The notes under the pieces: model-generated
What the model saw: only the letters and a program-made list of their open reading frames with translations
The model's database searches: none
What the model was told of the DNA's origin: nothing
DNA from: Escherichia coli
GTDB lineage: Bacteria; Pseudomonadota; Gammaproteobacteria; Enterobacterales; Enterobacteriaceae
Assembly (NCBI RefSeq): GCF_003334315.1
Contig: NZ_QOWR01000090.1
DNA length: 9,349 nt
Reading direction: 5' to 3' (one strand)
Translations under genes and position numbers: made by a program
Shown here: positions 9,006 through 9,349 of the stretch, one piece after another
Position numbering within the stretch: the first letter of the stretch is position 1
Layout of the letters: the number at the start of each line of letters is the position of its first letter

Positions 9006-9272
9006 ATGGCGCATATACAACTGGTCAAACAAACTTCTTCTGGTTTACTTCTCCCGGCGACGCCGGAGAGTTGCGATTTTCTGCATCAAATCAAAATAGG
9101 TGAGTGGATACACGCAGACTTTAAGCGTGTGCGTAACTACGCATTCCACAAGCGTTTTTTCAAACTCCTGCAACTGGGATTCGATTACTGGACTCCGGTC
9201 GGTGGGGCGATCACGCCTCGCGAACGAGAACTGCTGTCTGGTTTCGTTGATTACCTGTGCGAATCAGTTGGT
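9006..9272 (+). pseudogene. N-terminal fragment (89 codons) of a hypothetical, possibly prophage-type, gene truncated by an IS2-like insertion
   Basis: ORF runs directly into the IS terminus; its stop codon TAG (9273-9275) is formed by the first three bases of the IS2-like inverted repeat. Lies in AT-rich DNA. Product family not confidently recognised. Confidence 0.45.
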
Positions 9273-9349
9273 TAGACTGGCCCCCTGAATCTCCAGACAG
9301 TTGGTATCACTTAAGTTAGTGATAGTCTTAATACTAGTTTTTAGACTAG
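9273..9349 (+). mobile_element. Left terminus of an IS2-like insertion sequence (IS3 family), partial; element continues beyond the window
   Basis: TAGACTGGCCCCCTGAATCTCCAGACA...ATCACTTAA...GTGATAGTCTTAATACTAGTTTTTAGACTAG matches the IS2 left end as I recall it at roughly 90%, with differences clustered at 9299-9304 and 9315-9318. The transposase orfA start would lie just past the window end. Confidence 0.75.

Follow-up and report, generated by a model that had tools for sequence, protein, structure and literature searches.

An IS2-group insertion interrupts the DUF1367 gene of a Rac-like prophage of Escherichia coli after codon 89

Results

Gene content of the prophage segment

The stretch of DNA analyzed here, which we refer to as the window, is 9,349 nucleotides long and comes from an Escherichia coli contig (NZ_QOWR01000090.1). 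It carries a segment of a Rac-like prophage in which a replisome-organizer gene, a DUF977 gene, a block of cargo genes, hokD with sok, an AT-rich spacer, and a DUF1367 gene follow one another in that order (Table 1). When compared to the reference prophage of E. coli ECCHD184 (locus L002), positions 78-9272 of the window align with 99.94% identity (6 mismatches), and positions 1-77 do not align. The cargo block is kept at the same place in the ECCHD184 prophage. Downstream of DUF1367, the intact reference continues with an overlapping HNH-like DUF1364 gene, a Q-like antiterminator gene (DUF1133), lysis genes, trkG, and ynaK.

Table 1. Features of the window and their coordinates.
Feature	Position	Strand	Basis or remark
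Right end of IS100 (IS21 family), ending ...GTTGACA at 77	1-77	+	Interrupts the phage replisome-organizer gene
Cargo block: BCCT transporter, DUF2254, LysR regulator, gamma-glutamylcyclotransferase, MFS transporter	1405-7661		Between the replication genes and hokD
sok	8213-8387		Rfam RF01794, 116 bits
hokD	about 8382-8537		Homology to L002; hokD/sok type I toxin-antitoxin locus at 8213-8537
Truncated DUF1367 gene, codons 1-89 of 199 plus TAG	9006-9275	+	ORF list and translation; nucleotide identity to intact genes
Outside copy of CAGTTGGT	9265-9272	+	Part of the DUF1367 gene itself; corresponds to L002 9665-9672 in the uninterrupted allele
Predicted 5-bp target-site duplication TTGGT, left copy	9268-9272	+	Inferred from the 5-bp duplications of reference copies
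Left end of an IS3-family, IS2-group insertion sequence (left inverted repeat and leader upstream of orfA)	9273-9349	+	100% over 77 bp to reference left ends
Inside copy of CAGTTGGT	9298-9305 (IS positions 26-33)	+	In all left ends of the GTTGG type, whatever the flank
Diagnostic substitutions relative to IS2: GTTG(G) for ACCA(A/G); G for A; T for A	9300-9303(9304); 9315; 9317	+	Comparison with L010/L166 and L011

An earlier note on this DNA, made from the sequence by eye, had placed a disrupted gene in an AT-rich region downstream of hok. This description fits the intergenic region between hokD/sok and the final open reading frame, where positions 8600-8900 have a GC content of about 30%, and does not fit the open reading frame itself, which is 45-52% GC. 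In three other genomes (E. coli ECZP248, S171-1, and EC20-72C-1), a copy of IS1, amounting to about 777 extra bp, lies between hokD and DUF1367. Since these IS1 copies sit there, the hokD-DUF1367 neighborhood has been struck independently by other insertion sequences.

At the left edge of the window, positions 1-77 cover IS100 from the region of the istB stop codon to its end at position 77; reference copies of IS100 carry 5-bp duplications. Given that this end sits in the replisome-organizer gene, the open reading frame at 50-607 is an artefactual fusion across the IS100 junction (77/78). We did not find this junction in complete E. coli genomes. Some IS100 matches extended to query positions 89-98, as a longer insertion sequence or a target preference might produce, and these extensions we attribute to flanks that happen to be similar in the highest-ranking of 5,138 records.

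The DUF1367 gene ends at an insertion sequence junction

The last open reading frame of the window comprises 89 codons and is closed by a TAG at positions 9273-9275. To place its 3' end, we aligned positions 8600-9349 with 5,426 complete E. coli genomes using megablast. Positions 8600-9272 are matched in 829 of these genomes, the listed best matches being 100% identical, and in all of them the similarity to the uninterrupted site ends exactly at 9272 within a gene annotated as 'DUF1367 family protein'. Past this position, the intact allele reads CGGGAAC and the window reads TAGACTGG. Likewise, the DUF1367 gene of E. coli ECCHD184 (9407-10006) is 199 codons long and runs across the site without interruption, reading ...CAGTTGGT directly followed by CGGGAACACACGCC. 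Because identity to intact genes runs to 9272 exactly, the open reading frame at 9006-9275 represents the first 89 codons of a DUF1367 gene, and the three bases that close it are the first three of the insertion sequence. Both the insertional disruption of a gene downstream of hok and the provision of its stop codon by the first TAG of the element, as the earlier note had proposed, are thus borne out, and the uninterrupted homolog of the 89-residue fragment that it had suggested looking for is this 199-codon gene. We conclude that this Rac-like E. coli prophage has an IS2-group insertion after codon 89 of its DUF1367 gene, which belongs to the nin region.

The intact L002 product matches the Pfam DUF1367 profile (PF07105) over positions 1-198 of 198 with an E-value of 7e-98, which makes it a member of this family, and residues 1-89 of this product are what the window encodes (100% nucleotide identity). 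The intact product also matches PHROG 319, 'NinB/Orf homologous recombination mediator', with an E-value of 7e-70. Among solved structures, none matches the DUF1367 product by sequence.

The junction at 9272/9273 is absent from the 5,426 complete E. coli genomes, from plasmid records, and from GTDB species representatives, and an exact scan for it in viral contigs returned 0 hits. A scan of the GTDB species representatives for the insertion sequence end returned a single, unrelated match, in Candidatus Erwinia dacicola. The junction is therefore known from one contig alone. When the 89-residue product was looked up by exact sequence, all records returned were metagenome contigs; these end in GGTC or GGTCG, and we rejected them as further instances of the junction because they are intact alleles cut by the end of the contig.

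The inserted end belongs to a variant IS2-group type

The sequence from 9273 to the end of the window at 9349 begins TAGACTGGCCCCCTGAATCTCCAGACAGTTGGTATCACTTAAGTTAGTGATAG... and is oriented in the same direction as the gene that it disrupts. An IS2-type terminal inverted repeat lies at the element boundary, which the comparison with the empty site sets at 9272/9273. Only these 77 bp of the element and its left junction are visible in the window; in reference copies, the orfA ATG lies about 15 bp beyond the point where the window stops.

The 77 bp are matched in 6,800 E. coli records, 103 of them at 99% identity or more and 5,819 at 90-95%. Within the latter range, the class at 92.2% identity is canonical IS2 (L010, L166; annotated by PGAP as 'IS3-like element IS2 family transposase, programmed frameshift'), and the class at 90.9% is a close relative (L011), so that the window differs from these by 6 or 7 mismatches. 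Full (100%) identity over the 77 bp is shown by left ends of other complete 1331-bp IS2-group elements. Thus, the earlier reading of the last 77 or so bp as an IS2-like left end is confirmed, as is its observation that the differences from canonical IS2 are clustered: they fall at IS positions 28-31(32), 43, and 45.

Two of the complete 1331-bp elements with an identical left end illustrate what can lie behind it. One, on a Citrobacter freundii plasmid (L001), is assigned by PGAP to the 'ISEc27 family' and shows about 80% nucleotide identity to IS2 over its whole length. The other, on the E. coli G3/10 plasmid pSYM5/6 (2001-3331; L009), is a hybrid, with 24 differences from IS2 that are all confined to IS positions 28-166 and a remainder identical to IS2. 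Such an arrangement points to recombination or conversion among IS2-group elements residing together. A hybrid of exactly this make-up, with an ISEc27/36-type part of at most 166 bp at its start and IS2 sequence from there on, occurs in one record only, and this copy abuts IS26. The reference elements with the 100% identical left end carry frameshifted transposase genes (orfAB), and this left end is common on plasmids of Klebsiella, Enterobacter, Citrobacter, and Leclercia and is also present in E. coli. The full L001-type element is found at 99% identity or more in 28 E. coli records, labeled ISEc27 or ISEc36 by PGAP.

The names ISEc27 and ISEc36 are used here as PGAP labels only, and as such they are inconsistent, copies at least 99.5% identical to each other receiving both; 1254 bp of a full element would lie outside the window. 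The name 'ISEc27' has also been used loosely in the literature, where it was applied to a multi-copy element of K-12 J53 (PMC8417528), so we give it no weight.

Given that IS2 hybrids with an ISEc27/36-type left end exist, the 77 bp are insufficient to name the element, which may be a full ISEc27/36-type element or an IS2 hybrid with the same left end.

We considered whether a canonical IS2 might instead have inserted first and then acquired the clustered substitutions from the flanking gene through template switching or gene conversion. The changed bases GTTGG do fall inside a string that the flank and the element have in common. Nevertheless, all copies of the GTTGG-type end share the diagnostic bases, those at IS positions 43 and 45 included, across more than 20 unrelated sites that lie in other species and lack CAGTTGGT in the flank; in full elements, moreover, this end runs into a body that is only about 80% identical to IS2. 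We therefore rejected the flank as a template for the variant bases, an origin that is extremely unlikely. As judged from these sequence comparisons, the differences from IS2 are not local to this copy; they are the signature of a separate and widespread IS2-group lineage, or of an IS2 hybrid bearing that left end.

An 8-bp repeat at the junction is coincidental

The string CAGTTGGT occurs both immediately outside the inserted end and within it, at exactly the positions that the earlier note had given (Table 1). That note had regarded the repeat and the variant cluster as unusual, and this assessment did not hold up: the cluster belongs to an ordinary IS2-group lineage, and the 115 other insertion sites examined below have no tendency to such a repeat. 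The outside copy is present in the intact gene and the inside copy throughout the insertion sequence lineage; given that both pre-exist, neither was made by the insertion.

To ask how often an IS2-group element comes to lie beside a copy of its own terminal sequence, we collected 115 distinct left-end flanks (96 of the IS2 type and 19 of the GTTGG type), drawing on annotated records and on metagenome and viral contigs. The anchored match of each was defined as the longest stretch of flank that reaches up to the junction and is also found, on either strand, within the initial 77 bp of the same element. The longest anchored match among the 115 flanks is 6 bases, reached at 3 sites, and matches of at least 5 bases were seen in 22 of them, as compared to about 16 expected at random. 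Within the window itself, 15 of 9,232 positions (0.16%) have an anchored match of 8 bases or more. The a priori chance of an anchored 8-mer is about 0.16-0.2% per site, so about 0.2 cases would be expected by chance among 116 sites, and a single instance is unremarkable. The position of CAGTTGGT next to its counterpart in the element is a coincidence and not a feature of transposition.

The alternative is that the transposase or OrfA recognized the flank, GAATCAGTTGGT, as resembling the inner part of the left inverted repeat (GAATC..CAGTTGGT). IS911 can target sequences that resemble its inverted repeats, an anchored 8-bp identity is rare at any one site, and GAATC precedes both copies of CAGTTGGT, at different spacing. 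On the other hand, the anchored matches at the 115 independent sites stop at 6 bases and are distributed nearly as expected at random, the number of 8-base cases expected by chance is the fraction of one given above, and the geometry is wrong, the 8-mer lying 25 bp inside the tip of the element and directly beside the cut in the target. Recurrent similarity between flank and inverted repeat, as in the IR-targeted insertion of IS911, was thus not found among the 115 flanks, and we rejected target choice by such similarity as a general property. For the insertion at hand, we consider it highly improbable that the flank was recognized in this way.

The pentamer TTGGT adjoins both insertion sequence ends in the window, to the right of IS100 (78-83) and to the left of the IS2-group end (9268-9272). 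The uninterrupted prophage already contains both pentamers, each with C as the next base, and the a priori chance of such an agreement is about 1/1024. No preference for TTGGT is apparent among the 115 IS2-group flanks. It is very doubtful that IS2-group targets are occasionally chosen through identity to the inner left inverted repeat (CAGTTGGT, with GAATC before both copies), or that TTGGT(C) beside the IS100 and IS2-group insertions marks a structural target feature shared by the two.

The left-side targets of the 115 IS2-group flanks (loci L013-L165) do show some bias in composition. T is rare as the first duplicated base (7 of 115), as is C at position -8 (8 of 115), and G is frequent at position -6 (47 of 115). 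This weak bias suggests a loose target preference.

Both ends of the window are probably assembly boundaries

The insertion sequence stubs at the two ends of the window, IS100 at 1-77 and the IS2-group end at 9273-9349, are each exactly 77 bp long. A contig of a de Bruijn graph with k = 77 stops in this manner if several different sequences lead into the first 77-mer of a repeat. Given that exactly 77 bp of a multi-copy insertion sequence stand at each end, the window is probably a whole short-read contig from a k = 77 de Bruijn assembly (of the SPAdes type) bounded by two collapsed repeats. The window would then hold nothing beyond the tip of either element because the contig ends 77 bp into the repeat. 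Contig ends of this kind would also require each insertion sequence end to have at least two different neighbors in the source genome, with the bodies of the elements collapsed elsewhere in the assembly. The contig passes through the junction at 9272 without a branch, which suggests that the empty allele is not present at appreciable coverage. As a general caution, an insertion sequence stub that is exactly k bases long at the end of a contig marks an assembly boundary and should not be taken for a biological truncation.

These considerations bear on whether the inserted end might be a solo remnant, the body of the element having been lost or replaced so that the gene is disrupted with no functional element present. 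Remnants of the same end do exist: two of the loci that we compared lose similarity after about 55 bp (L016, L022) and a third after about 73 bp (L028), and the hybrid copy L009 abuts IS26. A full element would be expected to carry orfA/orfAB and a right inverted repeat followed by TTGGTCGGGAAC. The window, however, halts exactly 77 bp into the element, just as it does in IS100 at the other end, which would place this left end at least twice in the source genome, and full-length copies are the majority of those seen elsewhere. We therefore regard a solo remnant as unlikely, and a complete element as the probable occupant of the site.

Discussion

The reading that best accounts for this locus, and that we hold to be very likely, is that a transposing IS2-group element with an ISEc27/ISEc36-type left end inserted itself into the DUF1367 gene of this Rac-like prophage, that the 8-mer beside it is coincidental, and that the window is a k = 77 contig. 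IS3-family elements such as IS2 and IS911 transpose by a copy-out/paste-in pathway through a circle with abutted ends and make a short duplication on integration. None of our observations departs from this pathway. By analogy to these two elements, an IS3-family, IS2-group element would have entered the DUF1367 gene from a circular intermediate, leaving a 5-bp duplication of TTGGT. The element lies left end first, so that its orfA/orfAB would be co-directional with the gene. The complete reference copies are flanked by 5-bp duplications of GGGGT (L001), GTATG (L010), and CTCCA (L011). A simple insertion would predict a right junction that reads ...GGGGC(A/C)AATCCA, then TTGGT, then CGGGAACACACGCC (CGGGAAC...).

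With the TAG at the tip of the element closing the frame, the gene product is shortened from 199 to 89 residues, and the function of DUF1367 would presumably be abolished. If the insertion is polar, the translationally coupled genes downstream (the HNH-like DUF1364 gene and the Q-like antiterminator gene, DUF1133) would be cut off from upstream, early transcription. Taken together, IS100 in a replication gene (the replisome organizer, 9.2 kb upstream) and an IS2-group insertion sequence in the DUF1367 gene indicate a prophage in decay. Insertions of this ordinary kind are well known, and beyond its use for annotation the significance of this one is small, namely that of a Rac-like prophage eroded by two insertion sequences.

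The interrupted gene can be compared directly with WP_000940319.1, an uninterrupted DUF1367 protein of 199 residues found in Rac-like prophages. Its codons 1-89 and the 400 bp upstream of them are nucleotide-identical to the window, and codons 90-199 are absent from the window. Its neighborhood is likewise that of the window, with hokD/sok upstream, and the reference has DUF1364 and a Q-like gene downstream.

The inserted end shares with IS2 of E. coli K-12 the tip TAGACTGGCCCCCTGAATCTCCAGACA and the TATCACTTAA..AGTGATAG box, and 70-71 of its 77 bases are identical; its reference relatives resemble IS2 in their 1331-bp length, frameshifted orfAB, and 5-bp target duplication. It differs from IS2 by the 6-7 substitutions clustered at IS positions 28-32, 43, and 45, which put the 77 bp below the ISfinder 95% rule for IS2 proper, although an IS2 body may stand behind such an end, as it does in L009. 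In contrast, ISEc27/ISEc36-type elements are identical to the window over all 77 visible bases, and the body of about 80% identity to IS2 that such elements carry (L001) would lie outside the window.
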